From an uncultured Rickettsiales bacterium (GTDB lineage: Bacteria > Myxococcota_A > UBA796 > UBA9615 > CAYRNR01): a stretch of DNA of 64,000 nucleotides. Position numbers and translations under genes: made by a program. The notes beneath the pieces were generated by a model. It ran no database searches and was not told where the DNA came from. It was given only the letters and a program-made list of their open reading frames with translations. Of this stretch, positions 925-57,264 are shown in pieces (the stretch's first letter is position 1; each line of letters opens with the position of its first letter). The stretch is from contig CAYRNR010000033.1 in the NCBI GenBank assembly GCA_964425605.1, forward strand, positions 31 to 64,030. Direction: 5' to 3'.

Positions 925-2097
925 ATGACCACACGGATGATCTGGCTGGCCCTGCTCGCGCTATTCCTGCTCGGCCCCGGCTGCACGGACGTCACCGACG
1001 ACGACGATGACGTTGCGGACGACGACGACACCACGGCGGGAGACGATGACACCACCACGGGAGACGACGACGCCACACCTGGGGACGACGATGATGTCAC
1101 TGCGGACGATGACGACTCCGGCGCGGGGGACGACGACGACGCGACCCCGGCGATCCGCGTGCCCGGCGAGTGGGAGCCCCACGCCGCGACCTGGTTGCAG
1201 TGGCCCGGGCCGTGGGAGCAGAGTATGCGGCCGGCGTTCGCCGACATCATCGACGTGATCCAGGACCACGAGCCGGTCCACCTGCTGACCCCCTCGCAGT
1301 CGGACGAGAACCAGGCGCGCCAGTTCCTCACCCAGCGCGGCGTGCCTGACACGAACATCACGTGGCACCAGATCCTCATCGACAACGCCTGGATGCGGGA
1401 CAACGGCCCCGTCTACGTCACCGACGGCGCCGAGACCTGGATCGCGGACTTCCGCTTCGACGCCTGGGGTGGCAACTTCGGGGGCCACATCCCGTGGCAG
1501 TTCGACGACGACGTCCCCGGCCAGGTCGCCGACTACCTGGGTATCCGCAACGAGGACCACACGGGCTACGTGCTGGAGCGGGGCAACCTGGAGTTCAACG
1601 GCGCGGGCACGCTGGTGCTGAACTGGGACTGCCAGGACGACCGCAACCCCGGCATGTCCGAGGCCGAGCACGAGGCGATCTTGAGCAGCGCATTCGGCCT
1701 GACGCAGGTCGTCTGGGCCTACGGCCACGATCCGTCGGACCTGACCACCGGCCACATCGACGGGAACGCCCGGTTCATCGACACCGACACCATCGCCATC
1801 AGCGAATCCAGCTGGGGCCAGGATATCGAGGATCCCCTGGTGGTCGCGTGCGAGGCCGCAGGCCTGGAGGTGGTCCGTATCCCCTGCCCCGGTTCGACGG
1901 ACTACATGAACTGGCTGGTGGGCAACGGGTTCGTCGCGGCCATGGCCTTTGGCAACGCGAGCGCCGACGCGGACGCGCAGGCGGTGCTGGAGTCCCTCTA
2001 CCCCGGACGCACCGTGTACATGCTCGACGCGGGCACCCTGTGGGCCGGCGGTGGGGGCATCCACTGCGTCACGAACGACCAGCCTGTGCTTCAGTAG
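925..2097 (+). CDS. agmatine deiminase / PAD_porph family lipoprotein with acidic linker
   Basis: Signal peptide plus lipobox (LLGPGC), then a roughly 50-aa D/T/G-rich linker. The body carries AWMRDNGP and a C-terminal GGGIHCVTNDQP catalytic-Cys motif typical of agmatine deiminases. Confidence 0.8.
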   Translation: MTTRMIWLALLALFLLGPGCTDVTDDDDDVADDDDTTAGDDDTTTGDDDATPGDDDDVTADDDDSGAGDDDDATPAIRVPGEWEPHAATWLQWPGPWEQSMRPAFADIIDVIQDHEPVHLLTPSQSDENQARQFLTQRGVPDTNITWHQILIDNAWMRDNGPVYVTDGAETWIADFRFDAWGGNFGGHIPWQFDDDVPGQVADYLGIRNEDHTGYVLERGNLEFNGAGTLVLNWDCQDDRNPGMSEAEHEAILSSAFGLTQVVWAYGHDPSDLTTGHIDGNARFIDTDTIAISESSWGQDIEDPLVVACEAAGLEVVRIPCPGSTDYMNWLVGNGFVAAMAFGNASADADAQAVLESLYPGRTVYMLDAGTLWAGGGGIHCVTNDQPVLQ

Positions 2098-2109
2098 GGG
2101 AGTCTCGGA

Positions 2110-4524
2110 CTAGGGTACGAAGGGGACCGTACCGGCACCCATTCCAGTCACACTCGCTCCGGAGCCCGCCGTACCGGCCACGTTCCCCGAACCGATGAAC
2201 GCGGTGGCGCTGGCATACCCCTCGGCGGTGAACAGGTCACCCGTGTCGAGGCACATGCCTACAGAGGAGCCAGCCAGGTCGGCCGTGGACCACGCGTCGC
2301 CGCTGCCCAGGAGCACGGGCGCCGCTTCCAGCGAGACCAGCGACGAGTCGTAGGACTGGCCGAGGCCGGTGAAGACCTGAGGCGGACGGAAGCCCAGCGG
2401 ACACGAGCCGAGGCCGGAGCCGTCGAAGGCGAAGATGGGCAGTCGGACGTTGCCGAGGGGGCACGAGCCGAGCCCTGTCCCGTCCAGGGTGAATCTCCTC
2501 GCCAGGACCGTCCCCAGCGGACACGAGCCGAGGCCCGTACCATCCAGATCCACGGCGAACTCGGCCTCGTCATCACCGTTCCCGAGCACGGGGCGCGTGA
2601 AAATCACACCCAGCGGACAGGAGCCGAGGCCACTTCCGGTGTCCACGAGGAAGTAGGACTCGACCATCTCGCCGAAGTCCGGGTCCTTCAGCTCCGGCCA
2701 GTGGAACGCCAGGGCCGCGTCTTCGGCCAGCCCGTCCGTCGCCCCGGCCGCGGCCAGCAGGATCTCCAGGGCGTCCGGCGCAAAGAACGCGGTGCGCGGG
2801 TGCGTGCCGATGTTGTCCTTCTTGCAGGTGGCCGCCGTGATGGACCAGGCGTGCGCCATCTCCTGCCCGGAGTCGTCGTAGCGATCGACCTTGGGCGCCT
2901 TGACCTCGCACCGACCGTCACCGCTGGTGCCGCACTTGACGATCTTCTCGCTGGCCCCGCTGAACACCACGTAGACGTCCACGCCGCCGACCAGCTCCCC
3001 GGTCTCGTCGAGCACCGTGATCTCCGCCTTGGGCTCGATCTCGTCGCCGCTGTCTTTGAGGTACGGCATGATCGCGACGTAGTACACGGGCAAGTCGCGG
3101 GCCTTGCCCTCGTCGAACTTCTTGTCGGCCTCGCGGATACGCAGCCGGCCCTGTCCGTTGCCGTCCACCCACTCCGAACCGAGATTGTCGGCGCCGAGCT
3201 GCAACGCGGAGACGGTCTCGTCCGCGCTGGCGCCCGCGGCGAGGAGCCAGCACGCCGCACCGCTGGAGACTGCCGTCGCCTGGCTGGTGCCGGCGTAGAG
3301 CATGTACGCGATCGTGGAGGGGTCGTTCAGGGCGATCGTCTCCGACAGCATGCCGTCTGGGACGCCATTCTCGTCCTCGTCCGCGCCGACGTCGCCACCG
3401 GGAGCGACGAGGTCCACCGAGGGATGGCGGTTGGTGTAGTCCACCTCCTCGACCTTGCCGTCGTCGTCCTTCATCCGCGTCGCGCCGATGGCCACGACCG
3501 CGGTGTGCGCCGCGGGGTAGGTCAGGTAGTCGGCGCCGTCGTTCCCGGCCGCGGCGAGGACGACGATTCCCGAATCCCAGGCGCTCTGAAGGGCCTCGTC
3601 CAGGGCAGGCGACAGCAGATAGCCGGCCTGGAACGACAAGCTCATGTTGATCACGTCCGCGCCGTGGTCGATGGCATGCCAGATGGCGTCCACCAGCGCC
3701 ACCTCGGTGCCGCTGTTGTTCGCGTCGAGCACCTTGATGGGCATCACCGCCACACCCGGAGCGATCCCCTCGACCGTGTCCTGGCCGGCGATCAGCGTGG
3801 CGATGTGGGTGCCGTGCTGGTGGTCGTCGTTGGCGTGTTCGTCGCCGTTGACGAAGTCGTAGGGGGCCACGATCAGGGTGTCGGCCAGGGAGGGCGCCTG
3901 GACGTAGTCACCGAGGGCGTCGCTGTGGTCCTCGTAGGCGACGCCCGTGTCGAGCACCGCCACGACGAGGGTGCCGAAGTCGGGCAGCGTCTCGTCGTCG
4001 TCCTCGTAGACCGGGTGGCCCACGGATTCGAGGTGCCACTGGTAGTCCCGTGGGCAGGATGGGTGGTCGTCGTCGTCCGCTCCGTAGACCAGGCCGACGG
4101 GCATGGCCACGTCCACGCGGGGGTCGCCGCGCAGCTGCCACAGCAGGTCGTCGCGGGTGGTCTGCGAGGGTACGCTCAGCGTCGCGAATCCCGACGCCCC
4201 GGCGGGTCTCACCACCGACCCACCGTACTCGGCCGCCACCTGCTCCGCCGCCGCGCCGTCCACGGTCCGGAGCATCACCTGCTCGCTCGAGTAGGACGGT
4301 TCGTCGGTCGCGCACGACGAGATCAACGCCGAACTCCGCGACCAGCGAGCGGTTTGAGCCGCCCTCAGCCGGGCGTCTTCGGCCACGGTGAGGGTCGCCG
4401 CGCTCTGTGTGTCAGCCGGGTCGTCCAGCGGGTTGGGATTCCAGCCCTCGTGAACCCCGAACTGCCACAGCAACACCGCGGCGGCGAGCAATCCGATGAG
4501 GCCGAGATACCGTCGTTGAATCAT
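2110..4524 (-). CDS. secreted subtilisin-like S8 serine peptidase with C-terminal G-x-GLGSCPLG repeats
   Basis: Catalytic triad motifs VAVLDTGV (Asp), HGTHIATLIAG (His) and GTSQATAVSSGA (Ser). N-terminal signal/TM MIQRRYLGLIGLLAAAVLL starts from the ATG at 4524; the listed ORF starts further upstream. Four Cys-containing repeats sit near the C-terminus. Confidence 0.85.
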   Translation of the reverse strand: MIQRRYLGLIGLLAAAVLLWQFGVHEGWNPNPLDDPADTQSAATLTVAEDARLRAAQTARWSRSSALISSCATDEPSYSSEQVMLRTVDGAAAEQVAAEYGGSVVRPAGASGFATLSVPSQTTRDDLLWQLRGDPRVDVAMPVGLVYGADDDDHPSCPRDYQWHLESVGHPVYEDDDETLPDFGTLVVAVLDTGVAYEDHSDALGDYVQAPSLADTLIVAPYDFVNGDEHANDDHQHGTHIATLIAGQDTVEGIAPGVAVMPIKVLDANNSGTEVALVDAIWHAIDHGADVINMSLSFQAGYLLSPALDEALQSAWDSGIVVLAAAGNDGADYLTYPAAHTAVVAIGATRMKDDDGKVEEVDYTNRHPSVDLVAPGGDVGADEDENGVPDGMLSETIALNDPSTIAYMLYAGTSQATAVSSGAACWLLAAGASADETVSALQLGADNLGSEWVDGNGQGRLRIREADKKFDEGKARDLPVYYVAIMPYLKDSGDEIEPKAEITVLDETGELVGGVDVYVVFSGASEKIVKCGTSGDGRCEVKAPKVDRYDDSGQEMAHAWSITAATCKKDNIGTHPRTAFFAPDALEILLAAAGATDGLAEDAALAFHWPELKDPDFGEMVESYFLVDTGSGLGSCPLGVIFTRPVLGNGDDEAEFAVDLDGTGLGSCPLGTVLARRFTLDGTGLGSCPLGNVRLPIFAFDGSGLGSCPLGFRPPQVFTGLGQSYDSSLVSLEAAPVLLGSGDAWSTADLAGSSVGMCLDTGDLFTAEGYASATAFIGSGNVAGTAGSGASVTGMGAGTVPFVP

Positions 4525-4677
4525 ATCGCCCCCCCGTCGTGGAACACTTCCCGCTCGTATGTACACATTGACACCGATCTGGCAACATCCAAGTGAAAAG
4601 ACGGACAAGGAAGCAAACGTGGAAGCGTGATGGGGTGGGGAACTGTGCGAAGCGCCGGGTCGATGCCCGGTCAGGCC

Positions 4678-6096
4678 TCAGGGCGCGAGGTCGTACAGGC
4701 TCTGCAGCGGCGTGGTCCGGCCCAGCTCGAGGGTGCCATCCCACAGCACCTCCCACACCACGGTCCCATCGGGGAGCACCTCCTTGAGGCGTCCGCCGGA
4801 TCCGTAGTTGTGCAAGGTGTTCCCGTCGGGGAGGCGGTGGACCTCCCCCATCTCCCCGGCGTCCGCACCGAGCCCGATGCCGTAGTTCCACACCTCATGC
4901 AGGATCTCGTTCGGCTCGTCGAGGGAGTACTCCCGGACCACACACTCCTCGCTGTTGCCCGTGGCGTGGGAGGAGGTGAGCAGCGTCCCGGCCTCGGTGT
5001 AGTGGCCTCCGTGTTGCCAGTGGAAGGCCGAGTCGGGTGGATCGAAGGTCCAGGCCCCGGGCATGTGGCCGAAGTGGCGCACCGTCTCACCCGTGGTGTG
5101 GTCGAACTCGACGATGGTCTCGTCCGAGTACAGCGAGATCAGGAACGTGTCGTCGATCTCGTTGTAGAACAAGGTATTGGACTGACAGTAGTTCAGCACA
5201 CCGATCTCGTCGTGGAAATCCTGGCAGGACCATAGGGACTCCTGATCGCTACCGGGCGTGAGCTTCTCCACAGTCTCCATGTATCCCTGGGCAGCGCCCC
5301 ACACCAGCGAACCGTCGGCCAGCTCGACGAAGGGGTGGTGCAACCCCGGCGTGTCGTAGGTCTCGACCACCGAGCCGTCGATCTTCACCCGTTCGATCTG
5401 GGACGCGTCGCCGTTGTCGTACTGGGCCCAGTAGGAGTTGAGATCCACGAGGATATCGGTGCCGTCGTACGACGGCCGCGAGTACAGGGACGTGAACCCC
5501 TGCGAGGTCACGGTCGCCCAGACGAGCCGGGCCTGCCGGTCGATGATCACCGTCCAGCCGCGATTCCAGGAGACCGAGCCGAGGATGTACTCCATCGTCG
5601 GCTCCCACTGAGCCGGATACGACTCGAGCAACGAGGCGACGTACACACCCTCGGGAGCCTCGTCCGTGTGCGCTACGTACTCCTCGCCGGTCCACGCCGC
5701 ATCGCCGCCATCGGCCACGGCCCGGAAGCTCACGTCGTGGTCGTAGGGCACCCCCAGCAGCAGCTCCTCCTGGGGCCCCAGTTCCAGCTCGCGGGTCGGC
5801 GATACGAGCCACTCGTCGTCCACCATGAACTCCAGGTGCACCGCAGCGGTGGTGAGCTGGTCCCAGCTCACCACGATCAACGAGCCGATCGTGTCGTGGA
5901 CTTGCCACTGGACGTTCCCAAGGGGATCGCCGGCCATGGCCGAATCGTCGTCGTCGCCCGTGGCGTCGTCGTCGCCGGAGGTGTCGTCGTCGCCGGAGGT
6001 GTCGTCGTCACCGGAGGTGTCGTCGTCATCGCTGTCCTGACACGCGATGAACAGGGCGCATAGAACCCACAAGACCCACGAAGGAACCTGACGCAT
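4678..6096 (-). CDS. lipoprotein with (TSGDDD)n acidic linker and arylsulfotransferase-like beta-propeller body
   Basis: The ATG at 6096 is preceded by AGGAGAG. Lipobox LFIAC is followed by DDDDTSGDDDTSGDDDTSGDDD. The C-terminal part (WQHGGHYTEAGTLL...HRLPDGNTLHNYGSGG) resembles the ASST family. The functional call is tentative. Confidence 0.5.
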   Translation of the reverse strand: MRQVPSWVLWVLCALFIACQDSDDDDTSGDDDTSGDDDTSGDDDATGDDDDSAMAGDPLGNVQWQVHDTIGSLIVVSWDQLTTAAVHLEFMVDDEWLVSPTRELELGPQEELLLGVPYDHDVSFRAVADGGDAAWTGEEYVAHTDEAPEGVYVASLLESYPAQWEPTMEYILGSVSWNRGWTVIIDRQARLVWATVTSQGFTSLYSRPSYDGTDILVDLNSYWAQYDNGDASQIERVKIDGSVVETYDTPGLHHPFVELADGSLVWGAAQGYMETVEKLTPGSDQESLWSCQDFHDEIGVLNYCQSNTLFYNEIDDTFLISLYSDETIVEFDHTTGETVRHFGHMPGAWTFDPPDSAFHWQHGGHYTEAGTLLTSSHATGNSEECVVREYSLDEPNEILHEVWNYGIGLGADAGEMGEVHRLPDGNTLHNYGSGGRLKEVLPDGTVVWEVLWDGTLELGRTTPLQSLYDLAP

Positions 6097-6178
6097 GGGG
6101 ATCTCTCCTAGCACTACTGAAGGGAGCTTGGCACAACTCCCGTCGGAGTCCCAGGATCGCGACCCGCCCCGCGTGTCC

Positions 6179-7867
6179 TCAGCGAGTCACGGTCAGCTGA
6201 ACGACATCGACCAGGCCGGGGTCTCGCGACGGCGCCCGTACCTCCAGCGTGTAATCGCCCGGGGGCAACTTCACGTCGCACGAATCGGCCAGGCCGGGCC
6301 ACACGGCGTCGCCGCCCGGGCGGGCGACAAAAACCGCCTCGAGCGTCAGGGTCCCCCCGGGCAGCAGGGTCACCCGCCGCCCCTCGGCCAGCGCTAGCTC
6401 GCTGAGCACACAGGACGGCGGCGGGTCCACGGACTTGCCATCCTTCAACACACGACTCGGTGACGACGCCGGGGCTCCCTCGAGCAGGAACAGATCTACT
6501 CGAAGGGCTCCGTCCGTCGTGTTCCGGTACACCAAGGGGAAGCGAACCTCGCCGCCGCTGCGGACTGAAAGTGGCACGATCTCCGCGGTGAGGTCGTCGG
6601 CCGCCGGGAAAGCGCCCACAGCGCTCACGGCGATCCGACAGCGATCCTGTTCGCGAATCGACCCCAGGGTCAGGTCGTGGCCAGCGCAGGGGTCCAGCAA
6701 CCGCCTCGACAGCACGTCCCACAAGGGATTGGGGCCGCGGTCTTTCAACGTCTCGGCGCCCTCCCCCCGCTCCACGGCTGCCCAGTAGGCCCCCCCGAAC
6801 GGCTCGACCCCAAGCTCGTAGTCGAGGCCACCCCAGGAGCCGTCACCGCGGAAGGCGTAGAAGGCCCAGTGCCAGTTCCAGCGCGCCACAACGGTCAACA
6901 GGTCGTCGAGGTAGGCTGCGGCGCCAGCCACCCGGCGGTCGCACCCGAACTCGGACAGGACGATGTGCCTCGAATCGATGTGGTGCCGGCCGGTCCATGC
7001 GGCCACCGAGGCCAGCGCCTCGCGACGCGATCCTTCGGACCAGCCTCCCGGCATCGCTTCGGGGTACTCAAAACGCCCGTTGTTGACCCGATAGGTCACG
7101 TACTCCCAGGGGTCGTAGAAGTGAAACGCGTACAGGACGGCCGGATCATCCACGGGGGAGAGGTTCGAGAGGCCGAAGGGCGAGGCGTAGAAGCCGCCGT
7201 CGAGGAGGATCGGGGTGGTCGCGTCCCCCTGGCGGATGGCCGCCACCATTTCGCGGTTGAACCGGTTCACGTCCGCCAGCGTGCCCTCGATCTCCGCGGA
7301 CCAGCGGTGGAATTCGGCCTCGCCGATCGCGTGCTGCCGTTCGGGGTGCGGCTCGTTGAGGGGGTTGTACGCGACGACCGCCGGATGTCCGTGCAGCGCG
7401 GTGGCCAGCTGAGTCCAGAACGCCAGCGCCTGGTCACGAGACGTCGGCTCGTTCCACAGCCGGTAGTCGTCCTCGTCTCCGTTGAGCTGTCGCCAACGCG
7501 CGCCTGGCAGGGAGAAGCAGGTCAACACGACCCCCACTCCGGCGTCGTGGGCATCGTCCAGGGACCGCCGCAAGGTCTGAAGGTCCTCGGGCACGAGCGT
7601 CTCGAACGCGTCCGCGTCGCCGATGAGGAAGTCGCGATGAGCCGAGGGCCAGGCATCGGGTGCGAGGCGGATGAACTCGATCCCCGCTGCGGCCGCCGCC
7701 TTCCAGTACTCCGGCTCCACCGACTCGTTCTGGCAGTTCGCGCCCTTGTGCTGCCGCGACCACCAGGACATGTCCGGATCCACCGATGTCGGTGTCTCGG
7801 CGGCTGCTCCAACCGCCAGGGTGGACACCAAACCTACCGACGCCAGCAACCAACGAACCGAGGGCAT
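6179..7867 (-). CDS. glycoside hydrolase family 5 (cellulase-like) with C-terminal beta-sandwich-like domain
   Basis: Signal peptide from the ATG at 7867. GH5 acid/base motif YNPLNEPH and nucleophile motif VLSEFGC. Confidence 0.75.
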   Translation of the reverse strand: MPSVRWLLASVGLVSTLAVGAAAETPTSVDPDMSWWSRQHKGANCQNESVEPEYWKAAAAAGIEFIRLAPDAWPSAHRDFLIGDADAFETLVPEDLQTLRRSLDDAHDAGVGVVLTCFSLPGARWRQLNGDEDDYRLWNEPTSRDQALAFWTQLATALHGHPAVVAYNPLNEPHPERQHAIGEAEFHRWSAEIEGTLADVNRFNREMVAAIRQGDATTPILLDGGFYASPFGLSNLSPVDDPAVLYAFHFYDPWEYVTYRVNNGRFEYPEAMPGGWSEGSRREALASVAAWTGRHHIDSRHIVLSEFGCDRRVAGAAAYLDDLLTVVARWNWHWAFYAFRGDGSWGGLDYELGVEPFGGAYWAAVERGEGAETLKDRGPNPLWDVLSRRLLDPCAGHDLTLGSIREQDRCRIAVSAVGAFPAADDLTAEIVPLSVRSGGEVRFPLVYRNTTDGALRVDLFLLEGAPASSPSRVLKDGKSVDPPPSCVLSELALAEGRRVTLLPGGTLTLEAVFVARPGGDAVWPGLADSCDVKLPPGDYTLEVRAPSRDPGLVDVVQLTVTR

Positions 7868-7906
7868 GGATCTCCCCGTGCAGAGCAAGATGCAGACGAT
7901 ACACCC

Positions 7907-8623
7907 CTACGAGCGGGACCGCTTGCGCACGATGGCGCGGCGCGGCGAGGTCGCCGGTCGTGAAGCACGCGGCTTGCGTTTCGGCCTGGGCGGGATCGCC
8001 GGTTGGATCCGAGGGCGCTCCCCGCGCTGCAGCTGTTCGAGGAGGTCCTTGCCGTGGTACCGCGCCTCGGCCGTGGGCTGCTCGAACAGCTCGGTGAGCT
8101 CACGCTGCGCGCGATCGTGATCGCCCAGATACGCCGCGCAGTACGCCAGCTTGCTGCGCTGCCACCCCTTGTCGGGGCCGAATGCCTGGATCCGCGTCAG
8201 TTCGCCGGCGTCCACGGCGTCCACGATGGCACGCACCGACTCATACCGCCTCAACAGGGGCAGGCCGAAGTCCACCACCAGCTGCGCCGCCTCGGCAAAC
8301 TGCGACTCGAACGTCGCCTGCTGGAACGTCGTGAACCAGCGATCCCGTCCATCGGCGAGCGATCCGATTCGCCAGTGACCGTCCATCGACCCCCAATCAG
8401 ACGCCTCGCGATGGGGTGTGACCAGCAGGTGCCAGGAGAGGTTGACGGTGTACCGCTCGGCCCCGAGCCTGTGGTCGAGTTGCAGGTTCACCCCTTGGCG
8501 CAGATCCACGAGGTCCCGATGGGCACTGAAACCCTTCCGCCGGAACCCCAGCGGCGCCAGATCGGTGCGGCAGAAAGCCCCGAACCGCTTCAACAGCTTG
8601 GAGCGCAGCGTGGATTCACCCAT
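7907..8623 (-). CDS. hypothetical protein, DUF4304-like, with basic P/R/K-rich tail
   Basis: The N-terminal pattern KRFGAFCRTDLAPLGFRRKGFSAHR...YTVNLSW resembles DUF4304. It overlaps the upstream gene end by 8 nt. Confidence 0.45.
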   Translation of the reverse strand: MGESTLRSKLLKRFGAFCRTDLAPLGFRRKGFSAHRDLVDLRQGVNLQLDHRLGAERYTVNLSWHLLVTPHREASDWGSMDGHWRIGSLADGRDRWFTTFQQATFESQFAEAAQLVVDFGLPLLRRYESVRAIVDAVDAGELTRIQAFGPDKGWQRSKLAYCAAYLGDHDRAQRELTELFEQPTAEARYHGKDLLEQLQRGERPRIQPAIPPRPKRKPRASRPATSPRRAIVRKRSRS

Positions 8624-10379
8624 CGGACGAGCCCGTTCCAGGTTCCGCGACCCGGTCGAGGATCGTCACCGTACCGTTCGCGCCGTCGACACGTATGCGC
8701 TGTCCCGTCTCGATGACCTTCGTGGCCGGACCGACGTTGACCACCGCAGGGATTCCGAACTCCCTGGCCACGATGCTGCCGTGGCTGAGCAGGCCGCCCT
8801 GGTCCATGACGATGGCCGCGGCGTTGAGGAAGTACGGCGTCCAGCCCGGGTCCGTGAACGGCGCCACCAGGATCTCTCCCGGCCGCACCTGCTCCGTGCC
8901 AGCCCGGAGGATGACCCGCGCCGGACCTGTCGCTGTGCCGGGGTTCACCCCGAAGCCCTTCAGCGTTCGAAGATCGGGATCGACGGCCTCCTCGACACAG
9001 TGGCGGGACGGATCGAACCGCCCCACCACGATCGGAGCCGGCCGCAACGTGAGGTCGCGGTCGTATCGCGCTCGGCGCTCCCGGATGCGCGACAGGGCCT
9101 CGCCGCCCCCGGCGAGCGTGGCCAGCTCGTCGATGGCCAGGAAGAACACGTCGTCGACGTGGTCCGCGGCTCCGCCCGCGAGTGCTCGGCGGCCCAGCTC
9201 CAGCAGCAACCGGCGCACACCGGCGAGCTGGCGGACCAGCTGATTCTTGACGTTCTCGCGGATCGGCGAGCAGGTACGGGCCTTGTGCAGCAGGTACCCG
9301 AACAGCCACCGCTTCAGCGGGTTGCGCAGTCTGGATCGGACCTCCTGTTCGGCGGCTCCCCTCCCCGGGACGAGCCCCTCGAACTGTTCCTGGAAGTCGT
9401 GTGTGTCCATGGCGCCCAGGTAGCTCCGGACCTGGCCGAGGATGTCGTCCGGGGCCTCGGACCAGCGCGGGTTCATCAGCTCGAGCTCGCCACGGGCGTG
9501 GTGCCCGTGCTCGGCCATGAAGCCCTCCCACCCCTGGAGGAAACGATCGCCGCCTGGCTCGCCGTCGAGACGCTCGCACAGATCGACGAATCCCTCTGCG
9601 CCTTCGACCGCCGCCGCCACCGCAGGTTCCTCTCCCGCGACCACCGCGAGCCGCCACAGCGCCAGCCCGGCGTTGGCGTTGGCGTTGTTGCCCAACCCCG
9701 CCAGGCACGCCCCGATCAACGGGTTTGCCCCCTCGCCCAGCCACTTCTTGCCGTTGTCGAACAGGACCTGCTCCCACATCACACCGACGCCCGTGGCCTC
9801 GTAGATCTCGGCGTCCTCGACCATCGTCGAGACGGCGCCAGCGGCTCGTTCGGCGAGCTGTGCATCGGACAGGGCATTCAGATCCACGCCCAGCAGCGCG
9901 CTGGACCGCTCGTGCAGACGCTGAACGATTCTGTCACCCTCCACGGGGCGGTAGGTCAGTAGACGCAGGACGAATCGGGGCATCCGGCGCAACATCCGCG
10001 AGACGCTGAAGTCGAGATCCGGGAGGTCTGCGTCGTCGATCTCGATCGCGTCGAGATCTCCAGCCGCCCCCTGCTGGCCGCCAAAGACCTCGGTCAGGCC
10101 CCGGCCTCGCATCCCGGGGATGCGACGCATCGCCCCCAGGACGGTGTTGAGGTTCGCGTAGGCCCGCCCCCCGACCCGATCGAAGAACGTATGACCCTCG
10201 ACGTTCATCCCCAGGTTCGTCATGAACCCGCTGAACAGCGACTGGATCACCGGCTGCAGCACCGACCAGCTCAGCGGCGTCACCACGTCCGGGAGCACCT
10301 CGGCGGTGTTGACGTTGCTCCACACGACGCGGTCCTGTGCGGACTGCGCCTCCGCGCTGGGGAAGACCAAGCTCGTCAT
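8616..10379 (-). CDS. PEP-utilising enzyme (PEP synthase / phosphotransferase-like, mobile His domain)
   Basis: C-terminal GILVAPFTDPGWTPYFLNAAAIVMDQGGLLSHGSIVAREFGIPAVV is the swivelling phosphohistidine domain. Start taken at the ATG at 10379. Confidence 0.75.
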   Translation of the reverse strand: MTSLVFPSAEAQSAQDRVVWSNVNTAEVLPDVVTPLSWSVLQPVIQSLFSGFMTNLGMNVEGHTFFDRVGGRAYANLNTVLGAMRRIPGMRGRGLTEVFGGQQGAAGDLDAIEIDDADLPDLDFSVSRMLRRMPRFVLRLLTYRPVEGDRIVQRLHERSSALLGVDLNALSDAQLAERAAGAVSTMVEDAEIYEATGVGVMWEQVLFDNGKKWLGEGANPLIGACLAGLGNNANANAGLALWRLAVVAGEEPAVAAAVEGAEGFVDLCERLDGEPGGDRFLQGWEGFMAEHGHHARGELELMNPRWSEAPDDILGQVRSYLGAMDTHDFQEQFEGLVPGRGAAEQEVRSRLRNPLKRWLFGYLLHKARTCSPIRENVKNQLVRQLAGVRRLLLELGRRALAGGAADHVDDVFFLAIDELATLAGGGEALSRIRERRARYDRDLTLRPAPIVVGRFDPSRHCVEEAVDPDLRTLKGFGVNPGTATGPARVILRAGTEQVRPGEILVAPFTDPGWTPYFLNAAAIVMDQGGLLSHGSIVAREFGIPAVVNVGPATKVIETGQRIRVDGANGTVTILDRVAEPGTGSSDG

Positions 10380-10492
10380 GGTGTCTCTCCCCTTGGTGCG
10401 ACGGAGCCCCATCGTTCGAAGTACGTCGTCTATCCCATCCTACACCTCCGGTTGTCGAGACAAGCCACCCCGCGGGGCGATACCCTCGGTTG

Positions 10493-11785: not shown

Positions 11786-11815
11786 TGGGTGAGATGTGCG
11801 GGTTTGGGGGGGAAT

Positions 11816-11842
11816 CGCTGTGGACATGGCATGTCCACAGCG
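11816..11842 (+). terminator. perfect 13-bp-arm palindrome (cgctgtggacatg-g-catgtccacagcg) downstream of the ABC1 gene
   Basis: Read directly from the sequence. There is no U-tract, so it may be an intrinsic-terminator-like hairpin or a protein binding site. Confidence 0.35.
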
Positions 11843-11860
11843 ACGACGACGAGTACATAC

Positions 11861-11899
11861 GAGGAGAAGAGAAGGGAAGGGAAGGGAAGGGAAGAGGGT
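11861..11899. repeat. polypurine tract containing (GGGAA)x4
   Basis: gaggagaagagaagggaagggaagggaagggaagagggt read directly from the sequence. Confidence 0.8.
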
Positions 11900-11904
11900 A
11901 GACC

Positions 11905-12005
11905 TGAGCGTTTCTTGCGCTGAGCGCAAGTTCCAGGCCGGTCTGGGCGGTAGAGTTGGGTGGTTCTTGTGCTGAGCGCAACTTCAGGCCCAGTCTGCTG
12001 CACAG
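11905..12005. repeat. two tandem units of about 50 nt, each carrying a cttgYgc-tga-gcgcaaS hairpin (REP-like)
   Basis: tttcttgcgctgagcgcaagttccaggccggtctg compared with gttcttgtgctgagcgcaacttcaggcccagtctg. Confidence 0.6.
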
Positions 12006-12070
12006 TGCCACGGTGTTGCGGCGCGAGATAATTGAAGGTGTCGACCCGAGATAAGTCCACTCGAATTCCT

Positions 12071-12098
12071 GTTCAGATAATCCTCACTATGTGAGGTA
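12071..12098. repeat. left copy of the 28-nt direct repeat with CCTCAC-N3-GTGAGG palindrome
   Basis: gttcagataatcctcactatgtgaggta; 26/28 identical to 50151-50178. Confidence 0.9.
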
Positions 12099-12218
12099 TT
12101 TCCTGCAGTGCCATTCATTTTTCGAGCGGTCCGAGCCCATCTCTGCGCGCCTCGGCCGAGGTGAGGAGTGATTCCGATGTGGATGGGGAGCTACGAGGGA
12201 AGAGGGTGGTTCAGGGCG

Positions 12219-27917: not shown

Positions 27918-28973
27918 CTACTCGCCGGCCGCGCTGTACTTCTCGAAGTCCTCGTCGCTGAGGCCGAACTCGGCGTTGACGGACTTCTGCTCGTCGTCCA
28001 GCTCGACCGGCTCGCCGTCGTCACCCGTCGCGGCCTCCTTGCGCTCGGCCGGGGGCTTGGCCGCGGGGCCGGGCACGCTCGCCGGCATGCTGGCCAGGAA
28101 CTGCTCGGTCTGCTCGGGGTTGGCCTTGGCCATGGCCAGGGTGCTCTTGTGGAGCTCGGACTCCTTGTCCTTGGGCACCTTGCCGGCGGCGACGGCGCTG
28201 GCCACGATGGACTGGGCGCGCGTCTCCTTGCGGGTGGCCACGGCCTCCTTGATGGCGGTGACGTCCGCGTCCTCGCCCAGGCCGTACTCGGCGCAGATCA
28301 CCTCGCGGAGTTCCGCGTCCACGGGGACGCTGGCCTCGGCGGTGATGTTGAGGCCCGGCTTCTCCGCCCTCATTGCCGCCTCGACAGCTGCGGCCTTGGT
28401 GGAATCACCCTTGAGCTCGGCGATGATGTCCTCGATCTTCATGCTGCTACTCCCTCCAGCCAGCTCAGCAAGAGCGGTGGATGCCCCCCCGAAGAAGGGC
28501 ACGTTGGTACAGGCGAGATGGGTCATGAATGGACCCATCGGTTTCTTGGTCTTGGGATGGTTGACGTTGGGCTTGAACCCGATGGACACGTAGCCGTACT
28601 CGTCAGCCTTGTAGGAGTTGGTGCCCCGCTCGTTCCAGTCCATCTCGCAGGCGTATAGCCCGTCGTCGCGGAACTCGTAGCGCCCCACCGTGCCAAGCCT
28701 CGGCGCGGACAGGAACGGGATGCCAGTGCGGTGCCGCTCGTCGATGGGGGGCCGAAAGGACATCTCCTTGCGGTTGCGCTCCACGGTGGCGGCGAACTCG
28801 GCGTCGATGGTGAACGGCCCGGCGGGGTGGCCCTCGAAACGGCCGGCCGGTGCGACACGCAGTTCGGTTGGGGGCTCCTCACTGCGGGGGATGGAGACCA
28901 CCTCGCACATGACGATGTCGTCGCTACCGCCGAGCGTCGCCAGAATCGTCTCGAGTTCCTCTCGCTTCATCAC
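27918..28973 (-). CDS. Mu gpI-like head maturation protease / scaffold
   Basis: The N-terminal protease-like part (ELRVAPAGRFEGHPAGPFTID...PIDERH) plus an Ala/Glu/Lys-rich helical C-terminal half. Confidence 0.75.
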   Translation of the reverse strand: MMKREELETILATLGGSDDIVMCEVVSIPRSEEPPTELRVAPAGRFEGHPAGPFTIDAEFAATVERNRKEMSFRPPIDERHRTGIPFLSAPRLGTVGRYEFRDDGLYACEMDWNERGTNSYKADEYGYVSIGFKPNVNHPKTKKPMGPFMTHLACTNVPFFGGASTALAELAGGSSSMKIEDIIAELKGDSTKAAAVEAAMRAEKPGLNITAEASVPVDAELREVICAEYGLGEDADVTAIKEAVATRKETRAQSIVASAVAAGKVPKDKESELHKSTLAMAKANPEQTEQFLASMPASVPGPAAKPPAERKEAATGDDGEPVELDDEQKSVNAEFGLSDEDFEKYSAAGE

Positions 28974-31708
28974 ACGCCTCCAGCAATCGCCCGGAGGAGC
29001 TGCTCCACCAGGTCGAGATCAGGTGCCGAGGTCACGCCCAGGGTGCGCAGCACCTCGTCGGCATCGTCGGGGTACAACGCATGCGCCAGGGTCGAGGGCG
29101 ACGCGGCCGAGGCCCCGGCCACCAGGTCGTCCAAGCGGCGCCCCATGGCGCCGAAGACGTGTTCCAGTGCCTGCTTGTGGGCCTCGTCCCGGTCCATACT
29201 GGGATTGAGGTCCAAGGCCGCCTGGAGGCGCTCGGCCTCGAGCACCGTGGGCATGGCCCGCAGCCCGCCCTTGCGGATGGTGGCCATGACACCGCTCACG
29301 CCCGACTCGGTCAGTCGCACCAGGCCGCGCCGGAGCTGGTCCGGGGACACGGCCTCGGACGTCAGCAGCGGGCCGTCGAGGCTCTTGAACAGCCTCGCCG
29401 CCTCGTCGGGGCTGCCCAGGCCGGGGATGGACCCGAACGCCCGAGCCTTGTCCTCGGAGGGGAACTGCCGCAGCACGCGGCCCATGCCCGCCGCAGGCGC
29501 GCTGGGCCAGTCCGGCATCAGGGCGATGTCCTCGCCGCTGGCCACCTGCAAGCCCATGGACTTGACCATGGCCTCGGACAGCTCGATCGGCGTGGAGCGA
29601 CATCCGTGGTGGTTGGGCGGCGTGGCGTAGTTCCAGATCGGGTCGTCCTTCCGGAAGACCTTGCCGTCCATGTCCCTGCAGAATGCCGACGTGTCGTCGT
29701 CGAGGACCGCGTCGTACAGCCAGTACGGCGCCCGCTCCATGCCCTCGGGGGACATCTCCTCGGCGTACCGTGCGGCCATCTGCGACTGGCGGATGGCGTT
29801 CCCGTAGACAAGCTCGGCCCGGTGCTCGGACATCGGCGTGATGCCGTGGGCCTCGAAGATCTCGTCCACCTGGTCGAGCCACTCGGCGAACCCGGTGCCG
29901 TCGTACTCCGCCCGGAACAGCGAGTCCTGGACCTTCTCAACGGCGCGCAGACTCTCGACGCCGGCCAGCGTGAACGCCTTGCCACGGTGCTCGGCCTCGA
30001 GCGCGTAGTACGCCTTGGGCGTCATCCCCTGTCGCAGGGCCATCGCCTGCAGCTCGCCGAGGTTCGGCAGGTTGGGGACGTCGTCCATCGCCACCTCGGC
30101 GGCGATGTCCTCCCCGCGACGGCGGGACGCCTCGTACGTCCGCAAGTACGCCGCCAGCATCCCCCTGAAAAGGGTGTCCTCCAGCTCCGCCCGATTGGAG
30201 CTGAGGACCGGCTTCAACAGGTCTCGGGCCCGCTCGTGATCCTTCGCCTCTCCCACCGCCTGCTTGATGGCGTCTCGGATGGTGCCCCAGGCCGAGTCGG
30301 TGCGCTCCAAGAGAGCCGCGAGCAGCGGGGCCTCGTCCGGCTCAGGCGCCGCAGGTAGCCCGCGCCGCCCCGCCGTCACACCGCCTCCGCCGAGCTCGGC
30401 CTTGACCTCTGGGTCCCCGGCTGGTGGCGGAAGCTGCAGGGGCTGGCTCGCCCGCACCAGGACATCGTCGTCGTCGTGAGGTTCGGGCAGCTGGTAGCGC
30501 TCCTGGATGTACTGCCGCGTCAGCGGGTAGCCCATCTCCTGGAGGTCCTTGTCCCGGCTGACCAGCGCGGCCAGGTCCTCCTCCTCCTCGACGTTGATCA
30601 CGAACCGAGGGGGCGGGACCTCCGCGCCGAAGTTCCACATACACCACGGCGCCAGCAGCTGGTCGGTGATGGTCCCTTGCAGGGAGGTCGCATCCTCCTC
30701 CTTGATCTCCTGCTTGACCGCCCAGTGGACCTCGCCCAGCGACCGCGCACCCTTGTCACCCGACCTCGACGTCAGATTCTGGCCCAGCAGCAGCAGCGCG
30801 TAGGACTCGGCGCCCCAGTCCATCAGGTCCTTGTGGTTGCCGCCGCCCTGTTTCTCCAGGGTCTTGATGACCTCGATGGTCGCGTCATCGGGGATGACCG
30901 CGTACGTGTCGCGGCCCATGCTCTTGACGGCCGCCTCGATGACGTTGATCACCTTCGGGTTGGTACCCGGGCGGTACTTGGCCACCCGCATCGGGATCCC
31001 GAGAATCTCCAGCAGCTGCACCCAGCTCTTCAGCCCGAAGTTTCGGAACAGGTAGATCCACGCCAGGGGCCGGAACAGCCCGCCCCGGTTGATGTCGCCG
31101 GAGAGCGGATTGTGGGTGTGGACGATGAACTTCCCCGGCTGGAGGGGAGCGCCGTCGAGGGGAGCGGTCTCGGTGAGCAGGCGCAGCTCGCTGTGCGTCT
31201 CCTCGTCCACCGTGAACCACTTCTGGTGCCGCCAGGCGAAGCCGATCGGCATGACGCCGTTGGCGGACGTGTGCCAGTCCACCTCGACCGCGGCGTAGCC
31301 CTTGCCCACACCGTCCAGCAGCCACTCGAGGGCCTTGCGGAACTTCCCGTCGAGCCCCTTGAGCATGGCCTCGGCTTCCTCGGCGGCCTGCACCGAGCGG
31401 GCGTTGCTCTCGTCGCCGGGGCTGCAGCTGAACGGCGCGTTGGCCACGGGTCGTATGCGGTCGAGGTACCGGCCGAGGAGCTCGGTGTCCTTCTCGACCA
31501 TGTCCTCGAACAGCTCCATCTGTTCGTAGGCGTCACCGCCAGCAGCGGCGTCGAGGATGGCGATCAGTCGTGCCGGATTGAGCCCCTTGCTGGGGTGCAT
31601 CGAGTCGATGGTGCGGCTGCCGTACCGGCTGGGATCGCCCTGGCGGTTCCTGCCGGGGCGAAGCGGAATGCGCCGCAGACTGGCCCAAACGTCGGCCCAG
31701 ACGCCCAT
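28970..31708 (-). CDS. portal (DUF935, Mu gp29-like) fused to MuF-like minor head protein (gp30-like), plus an unassigned C-terminal extension of about 200 aa
   Basis: A single 912-aa ORF. The N-terminal half is DUF935-like (MELFEDMVEKDTELLGRYLDRIRPV...). The middle matches Phage_Mu_F (YWLYDAVLDDDTSAFCRDMDGKVFRKDDPIW...PPNHHGCRSTPIEL). The start overlaps the TerL stop. Confidence 0.75.
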   Translation of the reverse strand: MGVWADVWASLRRIPLRPGRNRQGDPSRYGSRTIDSMHPSKGLNPARLIAILDAAAGGDAYEQMELFEDMVEKDTELLGRYLDRIRPVANAPFSCSPGDESNARSVQAAEEAEAMLKGLDGKFRKALEWLLDGVGKGYAAVEVDWHTSANGVMPIGFAWRHQKWFTVDEETHSELRLLTETAPLDGAPLQPGKFIVHTHNPLSGDINRGGLFRPLAWIYLFRNFGLKSWVQLLEILGIPMRVAKYRPGTNPKVINVIEAAVKSMGRDTYAVIPDDATIEVIKTLEKQGGGNHKDLMDWGAESYALLLLGQNLTSRSGDKGARSLGEVHWAVKQEIKEEDATSLQGTITDQLLAPWCMWNFGAEVPPPRFVINVEEEEDLAALVSRDKDLQEMGYPLTRQYIQERYQLPEPHDDDDVLVRASQPLQLPPPAGDPEVKAELGGGGVTAGRRGLPAAPEPDEAPLLAALLERTDSAWGTIRDAIKQAVGEAKDHERARDLLKPVLSSNRAELEDTLFRGMLAAYLRTYEASRRRGEDIAAEVAMDDVPNLPNLGELQAMALRQGMTPKAYYALEAEHRGKAFTLAGVESLRAVEKVQDSLFRAEYDGTGFAEWLDQVDEIFEAHGITPMSEHRAELVYGNAIRQSQMAARYAEEMSPEGMERAPYWLYDAVLDDDTSAFCRDMDGKVFRKDDPIWNYATPPNHHGCRSTPIELSEAMVKSMGLQVASGEDIALMPDWPSAPAAGMGRVLRQFPSEDKARAFGSIPGLGSPDEAARLFKSLDGPLLTSEAVSPDQLRRGLVRLTESGVSGVMATIRKGGLRAMPTVLEAERLQAALDLNPSMDRDEAHKQALEHVFGAMGRRLDDLVAGASAASPSTLAHALYPDDADEVLRTLGVTSAPDLDLVEQLLRAIAGGV

Positions 31709-33417: not shown

Positions 33418-33896
33418 TCAGCCACCTCGAGCTTCTTGAACACGAAGCCGGCCATCTCTCGGAGGTGCTCCTTGAACGAGTACAGCACCGAGGGCGCGAA
33501 CTCCTCGAGGTACGCCACGATGGCCTCGATGGTCTCGACCACGATCTCGCGCTTGTCCCGGTCCGAGATGTCCTCACTGTCCTTGCGGTAGAAGCGCTCG
33601 GGGAACATCCGCTCCAGCGAGGCCAGGGCGTGAATCTTCTGGGGGTCGCCGTCCTTGTCCTTCAGGGCGGACCGAACCGCGTTGAGCTTCAGCTCGAAGA
33701 TGGCCGAGCGGTACTCCGTGGAGCTGGCGTTGTGCGCCTTGCGCTCATCCATCCAGTCCTGCTTGCGGCCCTTGCGCTGTAGCGCGGTGACCGTGATGCC
33801 GCTCTTCTCGGCGGCCTCCGCGTACGTACATCCCTCGAGCACCACCAGGTCGTGGGCCTGCTGGTACTGCTCCAGGGAGTACTTGCGGCGGCTCAT
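33414..33896 (-). CDS. terminase small subunit (HTH, Mu gp27-like)
   Basis: N-terminal HTH (EGCTYAEAAEKSGITVTALQRKGRKQDW). It overlaps the TerL start. Confidence 0.6.
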   Translation of the reverse strand: MSRRKYSLEQYQQAHDLVVLEGCTYAEAAEKSGITVTALQRKGRKQDWMDERKAHNASSTEYRSAIFELKLNAVRSALKDKDGDPQKIHALASLERMFPERFYRKDSEDISDRDKREIVVETIEAIVAYLEEFAPSVLYSFKEHLREMAGFVFKKLEVAE

Positions 33897-34234
33897 TCCG
33901 GTCGCCGTCCAACACCCGGAACGGTGGTCGTACCCTCGTACACGTCGATGCCGTCCGGGGTGATGCGGTAGAAGGTGAACCGGGCTTTTGCGACCTGGCG
34001 CCGCTGGCTCTCGATGAGCCCCTTGCGCTCGAGGTATCCGAGGTGCCGGCCGAGGGCGCCGCCCGACAGATCGGTCACCAGCTCGATGGGCTTGCGGATG
34101 ACTCGTTCGGCCAGCCAGTCAGCCTGCTCGTACAGAAGCTGGAGGATGACGACCCGGACGAGCTGAGCCTCCTCGGACAGCGTGTCCACGGTCTTGGGCT
34201 CGTCTTGGGAGGAGCTACGGCGGACTCGTGTCAT
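33893..34234 (-). CDS. winged-helix DNA-binding protein
   Basis: LGRHLGYLERKGLIESQRR...FYRITPDGIDV is a MarR/PadR-like wHTH. Confidence 0.55.
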   Translation of the reverse strand: MTRVRRSSSQDEPKTVDTLSEEAQLVRVVILQLLYEQADWLAERVIRKPIELVTDLSGGALGRHLGYLERKGLIESQRRQVAKARFTFYRITPDGIDVYEGTTTVPGVGRRPE

Positions 34235-34854: not shown

Positions 34855-34903
34855 TTCGCTGTAGACACACTATTTCGCTGTAGACACAGAATCGACAGCG
34901 AAA
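34855..34903. promoter_or_regulatory. two direct 15-nt repeats TTCGCTGTAGACACA (19-nt period) plus one inverted partial copy
   Basis: Identical copies at 34855-34869 and 34874-34888. 34892-34903 is the reverse complement with one mismatch. Confidence 0.6.
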
Positions 34904-35575: not shown

Positions 35576-35639
35576 GGTAGCTGAGTCCCCCAGTTCGTAC
35601 GAGTGGTTTTGGGTTCAGTCGGCCCTCTCGCCAAATACG

Positions 35640-35689
35640 AAAACGTTGCGTTTTTCGTTAGCCTTGCCTAATCAAAAACGAAACGTTTT
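35640..35689. promoter_or_regulatory. two perfect AAAACG-N3-CGTTTT palindromes in an AT-rich island (operator/enhancer candidates)
   Basis: 35640-35654 (aaaacgttgcgtttt) and 35675-35689 (aaaacgaaacgtttt), centres 35 bp apart, immediately 3' of the repressor gene. Confidence 0.6.
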
Positions 35690-35701
35690 CGCATTTGACC
35701 G

Positions 35702-36358
35702 TCAGGGCTTCTCCGCCTCGGCGGCCTCCTTCTCGCGACGCGCGCGAACTTCCTTCTTGTACTCCTCCAGTTCCCTGTCGACCTCCTCCTGGTACTCGAT
35801 GGGCACGTCGTCGGGCCGCTTCTCGTTGGCCCGCAAGATCAGGTCGATGAGCCGCTCGATGGCCCAGACGGAGGACTCGTCCTTTCGAGCGAGGAAGTCC
35901 AAGGAGGCTGAGGCAATCACCAAGATGTGTGCGTCGTCGTCGAGGGAGTAGTCATCGAGCTTGAGCTTGGCGTCGAGGTCCAGCAGCTTGGTGACGATCT
36001 CGTGGCCGTCCTTCAGCGCCTTCAACTTCTTCTTCTTCCACACTTCGCCATACGGCGCTCCGATCGTCCCGGCGAAGTCGCGGTCCTTGTCGCTGCCGGA
36101 CATCTTGAGCTTCTGCCAACGGGCCAGCATCGCCGGCCAGGGCTTGTGGCGAGAGCCTGTGAGCACCCAGGTGACGTCCTCGCCACGCTCGGCAAGAGCC
36201 ACCAGCATGGAGTGCGAGGCGGTGCGTTGTCCGCGCTCAACTTGCGAGAGAAACGAACCTGAGACGCCAAGGAGGCCAGCAAACTCCTTACCGTTCATTC
36301 CTCTTTGTTCGCGGATAGTTCGAATCCGCTGCCCCTCATTCTCATCGTGCGAATCCAT
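35702..36358 (-). CDS. phage repressor, XRE-family HTH with C-terminal oligomerisation-like domain
   Basis: IRTIREQRGMNGKEFAGLLGVSGSFLSQVERGQR is an HTH_3-type motif. It is divergent from the early operon. Confidence 0.75.
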   Translation of the reverse strand: MDSHDENEGQRIRTIREQRGMNGKEFAGLLGVSGSFLSQVERGQRTASHSMLVALAERGEDVTWVLTGSRHKPWPAMLARWQKLKMSGSDKDRDFAGTIGAPYGEVWKKKKLKALKDGHEIVTKLLDLDAKLKLDDYSLDDDAHILVIASASLDFLARKDESSVWAIERLIDLILRANEKRPDDVPIEYQEEVDRELEEYKKEVRARREKEAAEAEKP

Positions 36359-36378: not shown

Positions 36379-36690
36379 ATGAAGCATCTGTCATTGTCAT
36401 TGGACAACGCCATGCAAATCGCAATGCCTCCTCGAGAACTTCGCGCAAATCTCGTCCTCAGAGGCGTCACGATTGCTGGCGTGGCCAGAGACCTCGGCGT
36501 CAGCCGACAGCTCGTAAGTGAGGTCGTGCACCAGAGGCACGTTAATCACCGAGTTCGCCGGGCAGTCGCTAAAGCCGCTGGCCTTACCTATCGGCAGGTG
36601 TGGGGGGAGTCCGATCCCAACCGCACCACCGCAGAAGCAACCCGCCCAGAGACTAGCACGAACGAGGAGAAACTCCGAAATGCCAAGTGA
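36379..36690 (+). CDS. Ner/Cro-like DNA-binding protein (HTH_35-like); start uncertain (36379, 36412 or 36424)
   Basis: PRELRANLVLRGVTIAGVARDLGVSRQLVSEVVHQRHVNHRVRRAVAKAAGLTYRQVWG matches the Ner-family pattern. It is the first gene of the rightward operon. Confidence 0.65.
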   Translation: MKHLSLSLDNAMQIAMPPRELRANLVLRGVTIAGVARDLGVSRQLVSEVVHQRHVNHRVRRAVAKAAGLTYRQVWGESDPNRTTAEATRPETSTNEEKLRNAK

Positions 36691-36997: not shown

Positions 36998-37349
36998 CCA
37001 CAAGATCCAGGTCGAGGGCGTGTACCCGGCGGGTATGACGTCCCTCCTCCGCGACCTGCTGGTGGCGACCACGGGTCAGCAGCTGACCGTCGAGGCCGAC
37101 CGCATCGGCCGGCTCGTGTACTCCGGCGATGGCGCGCTGTACGCAACGGAGCTGTCCCACGTCGGACGGGAGAACTCCCAGCTCCACTTCACGGTGACCA
37201 TCCACTACGGCTGCGACCACGTGGTGGCCGTGGACAGGTGGGTCCACATCATGCGGCTGCTCTGCGACGACCTGGTCGTAAACGGCCGCGTACCGCGGTC
37301 TACCTGCAGGTGCCCGAAGGCTTCGGGCAAAGGGGAGTGCCATGCCTGA
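36990..37349 (+). CDS. hypothetical early protein
   Basis: The ATG at 36990 overlaps the preceding stop. 119 aa. Confidence 0.5.
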   Translation: MCSHKIQVEGVYPAGMTSLLRDLLVATTGQQLTVEADRIGRLVYSGDGALYATELSHVGRENSQLHFTVTIHYGCDHVVAVDRWVHIMRLLCDDLVVNGRVPRSTCRCPKASGKGECHA

Positions 37350-37665
37350 TTTGAACTCCTCCATCCAGGACGCGTTCCGCATCCTCGAGATGCTGTGCGG
37401 CGAGACTCACCAGGAGTGGTCCGCGCAGCAGATCGCGTCGAGCCTGAGCCTCTCGCTGGCGAAGGTCCGTGTCGCGCTCCACACCATGCACGACCTGGAC
37501 GTGGTCCAGGGCATCCGAAATCCCACGAACAACCGGATCGAAAGATGGATGGTCGGCCCGCGCATTCCGGCGCTGGCTTTCCGATACCAGCGTGCGCAGA
37601 CCCGCCGCCTCGACGAGATCCGGGAGATGTTGCTGTCGATGAACAACGGAGAGGTGACTCAATGA
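37342..37665 (+). CDS. winged-helix (IclR-N-like) DNA-binding protein
   Basis: IQDAFRILEMLCGETHQEWSAQQIASSLSLSLAKVRVALHTMHDLDVV. Confidence 0.55.
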   Translation: MPDLNSSIQDAFRILEMLCGETHQEWSAQQIASSLSLSLAKVRVALHTMHDLDVVQGIRNPTNNRIERWMVGPRIPALAFRYQRAQTRRLDEIREMLLSMNNGEVTQ

Positions 37666-41629: not shown

Positions 41630-41639
41630 GGAGGAACCC

Positions 41640-42104: not shown

Positions 42105-42328
42105 TGCAGCGGGTGCGCGGCGATCAGTGCGCGTGCGGCCAGCCAGCCCTGTCCACTGGGCGGTGCCGCTCCTGCGCAGCACGCCTGGCCAACGAAACCC
42201 GGCGCGAGAACGCCCGGGCCCGAGCCGTCCAGGACCTCGAGCTGCTCGAGGAGCATCTGCGCGGCCTCAAGGCCCAGGTCCAGGCCGGGCTGGATCGCGT
42301 CGTCCAGGTCCGGGAGGCGCTCCGATGA
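42104..42328 (+). CDS. small CxC...CxxC protein with coiled coil
   Basis: 74 aa. The start overlaps the preceding stop. Confidence 0.45.
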   Translation: MQRVRGDQCACGQPALSTGRCRSCAARLANETRRENARARAVQDLELLEEHLRGLKAQVQAGLDRVVQVREALR

Positions 42329-50150: not shown

Positions 50151-50178
50151 GTTCAGATAATCCTCACTGTGTGAGGTT
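50151..50178. repeat. right copy of the 28-nt direct repeat
   Basis: gttcagataatcctcactgtgtgaggtt. Confidence 0.9.
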
Positions 50179-50242
50179 TTCTGCGTCTCGTGCATGTGAA
50201 GTCGATGCGTTTCACACCAAACCTCCCGGCGCGCTGAGGGAT

Positions 50243-57262: not shown

Positions 57263-57264
57263 CC

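Follow-up and report, generated by a model that had tools for sequence, protein, structure and literature searches.

Palindromic 28-nt direct repeats near the ends of a BcepMu/B3-type transposable prophage from an uncultured, high-GC bacterium

Why should a phage that moves by transposition carry direct repeats on both sides of its genes, as integrase prophages do, whose attL and attR sites are likewise direct repeats of tens of bases around the prophage genes? The question is raised by a 38.3-kb prophage (12014-50283) in the window analysed here, a stretch of 64,000 nt that represents contig C33 of a 475-contig, 9.78-Mb metagenome-assembled genome of 68% G+C. The first-pass annotation of this DNA offered three explanations for the repeats, namely (a) palindromic binding sites of the transposase at the phage ends, (b) an att-like core used by an unrecognised site-specific mechanism, or (c) a repeated host element that was present before the phage.

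A transposable prophage and its pair of 28-nt repeats

From a repressor/Ner switch at its centre, the prophage reads its late genes leftward and its early genes rightward. The late operon (12219-34596, minus strand) encodes Mu-type tail, baseplate and sheath proteins, a tape measure, a gpT capsid protein, the Mu I protease, a portal-MuF fusion and a terminase, with Pfam matches to Mu Gp36, Gp37, Gp45, GP46, Gp48, Baseplate_J, Mu-like_gpT, Mu-like_Pro, Portal_Mu and Phage_Mu_F. At the switch, a candidate XRE-type HTH repressor (35702-36358, minus strand; HTH_31 and HTH_3) adjoins the first gene of the early operon (36379-36690, plus strand), which encodes a small Ner-like HTH protein with a weak HTH_35 match and a homologue of the same assignment in the related phage L059. 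The early operon also contains a DDE (rve) transposase of the B3/BcepMu gp09 type (38812-40482, plus strand), identified from a Pfam rve match (E 6e-5, 23.7 bits, below the 32.6-bit cut-off) and from tblastn alignments to the transposases of B3, PM105 and BcepMu, the closest isolated phages by this protein (31-34% identity over 66-81% of the protein, E 1e-40 to 1e-49). It is followed by a MuB/TniB-like AAA+ ATPase (40493-41629, plus strand; AAA_22, E 6e-20, with a weak TniB match) and by Gam and GemA-like genes (41469-43017, plus strand; Phage_Mu_Gam, E 1.6e-16, the GemA match being weak), and the operon further encodes an amidase and a DNA methylase. As the first-pass annotation had noted, no tyrosine or serine recombinase is encoded on the contig, either in six-frame searches with PF00589 (Phage_integrase) and PF00239 (Resolvase) or in Pfam scans of all plausible open reading frames; six-frame searches of the whole genome return many matches elsewhere.

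BcepMu and B3 resemble this prophage in encoding an rve-type transposase, a MuB-like ATPase, Gam and GemA, and in directing the early operon outward to one end and the late operon to the other; the early operon of PM105 also runs outward. The 38.3-kb element is an ordinary transposable prophage of the BcepMu/B3 type, found here in an uncultured high-GC lineage, unlike BcepMu from Burkholderia and B3 from Pseudomonas, and it extends this phage group to a bacterium with a genome of roughly 10 Mb.

Several further features of the phage genome were recorded. Immediately 5′ of the transposase gene lies a gene for a DUF3102 protein (37395-38804), which occupies the same place in L059, L060, G243 and G377 and could encode an accessory factor for DNA binding or transposition in this phage group. 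Besides the repressor and the Ner-like protein, small HTH proteins are assigned to 33893-34234 and 37342-37665. The Portal_Mu and Phage_Mu_F domains are fused in a single 912-aa open reading frame (28970-31708, minus strand), while in Mu the two domains are on separate genes; the G243 prophage matches this frame over residues 25-728, and the fusion is apparently common to both. Upstream of the late operon, the gap at 34855-34890 contains the ~15-nt sequence TTCGCTGTAGACACA twice in direct orientation, about 19 nt apart, as a candidate late-activator site or late promoter element. Just 3′ of the repressor gene (35630-35700) lie the AT-rich, operator-like palindromes ACGAAAACGTTGCGTTTTTCGT and AAAAACGAAACGTTTTCG, and the motif TTTTTCGA is also present near the late-side end (12118-12125) and in the relatives G410 and L069.

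The two copies of the repeat, GTTCAGATAATCCTCACT[A/G]TGTGAGGT[A/T], lie on the plus strand at 12071-12098 and 50151-50178 and are identical at 26 of 28 positions. The expected number of such matches was 0 (≤3 mismatches, 100 shuffles), and the pair is real and beyond chance. Similarity extends to 12106 and 50184, reaching 91.7% over 36 nt with two 1-nt gaps. Each copy contains the palindrome CCTCAC-N3-GTGAGG, with TAT in the loop on the left (12082-12096) and TGT on the right (50162-50176), where it begins 94 nt past the last early gene and is followed by TTTTCTG. This core is nested within a longer imperfect palindrome, the arms of which read CAGAtAAtCCTCAC and CAGAaAA-CCTCAC, and the two mismatches between the copies fall in the loop and directly 3′ of the stem, sparing the stem itself. 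Coordinates, identity, orientation and nested symmetry thus agree with what the first-pass annotation had described.

A scan of the whole 9.78-Mb assembly, tolerating up to 6 mismatches, revealed no third copy of the 28-mer, and the core CCTCAC-N3-GTGAGG is confined to the same two copies. An exact scan of public genome, viral and metagenome contig collections with the 23-mer pattern CAGATAATCCTCACNNNGTGAGG gave 0 matches. With two copies in 9.78 Mb, a dispersed host repeat of the REP or MITE kind is ruled out as the identity of the 28-mer, and with it the proposal that the phage had inserted beside or into a pre-existing host repeat. The presence of the element at both ends also makes a pac signal unlikely.

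Termini of the prophage and its host flanks

Terminal sequences of the BcepMu/B3 kind were located outside both repeats. On the late-gene side, a terminal inverted repeat occupies 12014-12058 (plus strand, 5′-TGTTGCGGCGCGAGATAATTGAAGGTGTCGACCCGAGATAAGTCC); its counterpart on the early-gene side occupies 50239-50283 (minus strand) and reads TGTGTCGACCCGAGGTAACTGGGGGGGGTGATCCGAGATAAATCC as the reverse complement. The two align without gaps at 32 of 45 positions, a score that 200 random scans of equal size did not reach (maximum 29 of 45), and the outer end is 5′-TG on both sides (TG at 12014-12015, CA at 50282-50283). Two CGAG(A/G)TAA boxes are present in each end, one 12-14 and the other 35-37 nt in from the terminus: L1 (GAGATAA, 12025-12031, plus strand, nt 12-18) and L2 (GAGATAA, 12048-12054, plus strand, nt 35-41) on the left, and R2 (TTATCTC, 50243-50249, nt 35-41) and R1 (TTACCTC, 50266-50272, nt 12-18) on the right. 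The hexamer AGATAA is very rare in this genome, with 116 copies in 9.78 Mb counting both strands, and every one of the five in the 64-kb window is at the phage borders (plus strand at 12026, 12049, 12075 and 50155; minus strand at 50243-50248). A sixth box reads AGGTAA (minus strand, 50266-50271). BcepMu and B3 likewise begin with TG, and at both of their ends G(C/T)G(A/C)GATA(A/T) boxes lie in the register observed here, nt 12-14 and 35-37. This register is therefore common to phages of Burkholderia, of Pseudomonas and of the present lineage, and provides a rule for locating the termini of such prophages in metagenomes.

Between R1 and R2, on the early side only, the present prophage has a C8 tract (50256-50263, plus strand), a difference from BcepMu and B3. 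Counterparts of C8 and C7 occur at the contig ends of L059 and L060, and the tract could act as a spacer or a pac-related signal, or be prone to slippage.

Because of the terminal inverted repeat, the box register, the contig ends and junctions of related phages, and host-side limits near 12000 and ~50303, we infer that the termini lie at 12014 and 50283, within about 2 nt. A previous guess of 12038/50282, based on a 17-nt inverted match, was dropped after comparison with BcepMu, B3 and the IMG/VR contig G410. The convincing TG...CA termini that had been missed in the first-pass annotation are thus present at these positions, with boxes in the BcepMu/B3 register. They place the 28-mers at nt 58-85 from the left, late-side terminus and nt 106-133 from the right, early-side terminus: the repeats are subterminal and are not the ends of the element. 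The description of the repeats as exactly enclosing the phage genes holds in that all phage open reading frames (12219-50068) lie between the two copies, but the element itself ends about 57 and about 105 nt further out. A transposing phage with att-like direct repeats has ordinary ends, and the apparent contradiction is removed.

Related phages provide independent views of such ends. L059 and L060, with transposases 50% identical to that of the prophage, are represented by contigs that include the early-side end only and that stop 20-21 nt past a C7/C8 run matching 50256-50263, the L060 contig terminating in ...GGAACA. Their terminal boxes are unlike those of the present prophage. The 37.4-kb contig G410 includes the late-side end but breaks off about 1.2 kb before the early-side end is reached, and no relative with both ends was found. 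A further phage, with a baseplate J protein 60% identical to that of the prophage, was recovered in two samples (L074/L076; IMG/VR 3300017987_000192 and 3300017989_000454), and its host flanks differ up to the base before 5′-TGTGTTGC, outside a subterminal hairpin. The divergence of these flanks is direct evidence that the phage group moves by TG termini. Insertion at differing host sites is observed in this relative, while the present phage is found as one copy. The end boxes of L074/L076 are of a CGAAAC type and not of the AGATAA type, and the hairpin, GTTGCT-N8-AGCAAC, lies at nt 46-65. In three prophages from the same phylum (G002, G243 and G377; transposases 36-42% identical), the same divergent gene layout is present and no recognisable end repeats were detected.

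No target-site duplication of at least 5 nt was found for any choice of termini within 12005-12041 and 50276-50299, and the bases flanking the inferred termini are CACGG and CCGGC; the first-pass annotation had also seen no short matching duplication, and this was borne out for all plausible terminus pairs. The two host flanks are not syntenic partners, as their orthologues are on different contigs in 5 of 5 family-level genomes with both flanks, and an empty site could not be reconstructed from any of these five. The mismatch of the flanks reflects either a rearrangement after insertion or a metagenome contig that joins the junctions of different insertions, and rearrangement is a frequent outcome of Mu-type replicative transposition. 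Because the flanks are non-syntenic, by rearrangement or by chimeric assembly, the missing duplication may be hidden. Phage KS10 also lacks a target-site duplication (PMC2628397).

The left flank comprises an ABC1 kinase gene and REP-like repeats, of which two tandem units (GGTAGAC..TTTCTTGCGCTGAGCGCAAGTTC..AGTCTGG) occupy 11815-12000 and end just outside the left terminus (~12000); this repeat is present in many copies in G001, a genome of the same genus, and in several copies in the genome analysed here. On the right, homology of a kinase gene to a same-genus genome reaches down to ~50303. Within 50243-50345, this Ser/Thr kinase gene (minus strand) is truncated by the right end of the phage about 20 codons past its transmembrane helix, its last 13 codons and stop (50243-50245) being phage end sequence, while the same-genus homologue has about 165 additional C-terminal residues. 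The sole homologue of the missing C-terminal domain is encoded on contig C124, behind a (GEVE)n repeat. Second, diverged copies of the flanks are also present in the bin: C162 begins 62 nt from the phage terminus and matches 50345-64000 at 85.5% identity, and the region 966-10390 has its counterpart in C86, at 78-85%. Together, C162, C86 and C124 suggest either two related genomes binned together or large duplications.

The 28-nt repeats as putative third elements of the ends

We favour, with a probability of about 0.6, the reading that the 28-mers are subterminal cis-elements of the transposition ends and putative protein-binding sites in the end complex. L1, L2, R1 and R2 would be the sites of the transposase, and the 28-mer would be a third element at each end, in which an AGATAAT box is fused to the two-fold symmetric site CCTCAC-N3-GTGAGG. 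It would be bound, in dimeric form, by the transposase or by another DNA-binding protein of the phage with an accessory role, which may help to build or regulate the end complex. Of the options put forward in the first-pass annotation, that of end-binding sites is nearest to the evidence, with the amendment that the repeats lie inside the terminal sites, as a third element of each end.

This arrangement accounts for the orientation of the repeats. The AGATAAT box of the left copy is oriented as L1 and L2, and that of the right copy is inverted relative to R1 and R2; with inversion of the third element confined to one end, the copies read as direct repeats, and a transposing phage bracketed by direct repeats poses no paradox. 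Similar geometry is found in better-known phages. BcepMu has an inverted third box, GAGATAT, 123-125 nt from its early-side terminus, close to the inverted box of the present prophage at 128. Mu has three subsites per end, of which the innermost right-end site is inverted and so forms a direct repeat of the left-end sites: in the Mu sequence, R3, which lies 56-77 nt from the right end, shows a direct-orientation match to L1, L2 and L3. R3 is also said to be inverted in the 1984 account by Craigie et al. The comparison has bounds, as Mu has a MuA-type transposase and unrelated site sequences, its sites are monomeric and not palindromes, and its R3 lies at 56-77 nt from the terminus as against 106-133 nt for the right copy here. 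In Mu, L3 and R3 are accessory (PMC3145075).

The near-identity and length of the 28-mers are not accounted for by the third-site analogy alone. The direct match between the two copies scores 24, as compared with 8-10 in Mu, B3, PM105 and BcepMu, values that fall within the null ranges of those phages. Unlike BcepMu, B3 and PM105, which have no significant end-to-end direct repeat, this prophage has third elements that are 26/28 identical and contain a 6+6-bp palindrome. Such a long palindromic third element is a modest lead on accessory end sites outside Mu.

Evidence for recognition by a protein comes from L059 and L060, each of which has one half-site (GATACCTCACTGTGT and GAAATTTCCTCACATCG, respectively) at the same distance from the early terminus. 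The retention of half-sites without a palindromic partner points to protein recognition, which it would fit better than an RNA hairpin, as judged from sequence comparison. When scored with a weight matrix derived from the four terminal boxes, the 28-mers do not rise above background, and the AGATAA(T) core is all that they have in common with those boxes; because the matrix misses the 28-mers, the protein at these sites may differ from the transposase domain that reads L1, L2, R1 and R2. Taken further, the 28-mers could be not transposase sites at all but operators of a separate conserved phage protein, bound as a dimer to GAWA-CCTCAC half-sites at both ends, a proposal to which we give a rather slim chance. 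Such a protein could pair the ends in a fixed geometry or turn transposition and read-through on and off. If true, the proposal would account for the stronger conservation of the half-site from phage to phage, relative to the transposase boxes, and would add a previously undescribed end-regulatory layer in BcepMu/B3-type phages.

Transcriptional, site-specific and neutral explanations

A purely transcriptional role, in which the 28-mers are matched intrinsic terminators or insulators facing the same direction, is unlikely but is the chief competitor of the end-complex reading. The right copy would end early-operon transcription ahead of R2 and R1, and the left copy would keep host transcripts from entering the late operon in antisense. 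Read on the opposite strand, the palindrome with AUUAUCU behind it could terminate both the late operon and transcripts that arrive from the host kinase gene. The 28-mers are the sole terminator-like matches in their intergenic regions, with a 6-bp stem, a 3-nt loop and a T-rich tail, and both pass a loose intrinsic-terminator scan on the plus strand, which reports about 24 such sites in the window, mostly within genes. Folding of the extended hairpins yields -13 to -15 kcal/mol, and the z-scores lie between -2.0 and -2.9 on 3 of 4 strands; the two mismatches are in the loop and just past the stem. Comparative data lend further support: in B3, the corresponding place, 116-138 nt from the early-side terminus, is occupied by a strong terminator hairpin of 8 bp with a TTTCTTT tail, and unrelated 6-bp hairpins, also followed by T-rich tails, occur in L059 and L069 at positions matching those of the 28-mers. 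Directly repeated terminators have moreover been placed at both ends of engineered mini-Mu units against read-through (PMC3145075). Those rho-independent terminators also have the same orientation inside each end, but they are strong, whereas the hairpins here are weak, natural and fused to an AGATAAT box.

Against a terminator stand the short stem of 6 bp, the poor tails (TATTTCC on the left) and the hairpin of G410, which has no T tail on either strand. The CCTCAC half-site is kept in L059 and L060 with no partner to pair with, and the conserved GTTCAGATAAT flank, with its rare, end-specific AGATAA box, would be left unexplained. In addition, the left copy lies inside L1 and L2 and cannot shield them from incoming transcription. 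A terminator role and the binding of a protein in the end complex are compatible with each other.

The proposal that the 28-mers are attL/attR-like cores of a site-specific system with an unrecognised recombinase draws on their direct orientation, their length of 28 nt, their palindromic core and their position around all phage genes. Against it, the contig encodes no tyrosine or serine recombinase by the six-frame and Pfam searches, the repeats are internal to BcepMu/B3-type TG...CA ends, with phage-type sequence continuing 57 and 105 nt beyond them, and no attB-like copy was detected in relatives or public collections. The host junction of L074/L076, furthermore, falls at the TG terminus. 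The att-like option raised in the first-pass annotation thus finds no support, and we regard it as extremely improbable.

Finally, the near-identity of the copies could be a neutral by-product of a recent duplication or gene conversion between the ends, which would leave the 28-mer with no role of its own, or, in a variant, of insertion beside a host repeat. The 28-mers, at 26/28, are far more alike than the functional terminal boxes (32/45), and comparable repeats are not significant in B3, PM105 and BcepMu. We nevertheless consider it improbable, given that half-sites are kept in phages with 50% transposase identity, that the rest of the host genome is free of the 28-mer, and that the mismatches between the two copies avoid the stem.
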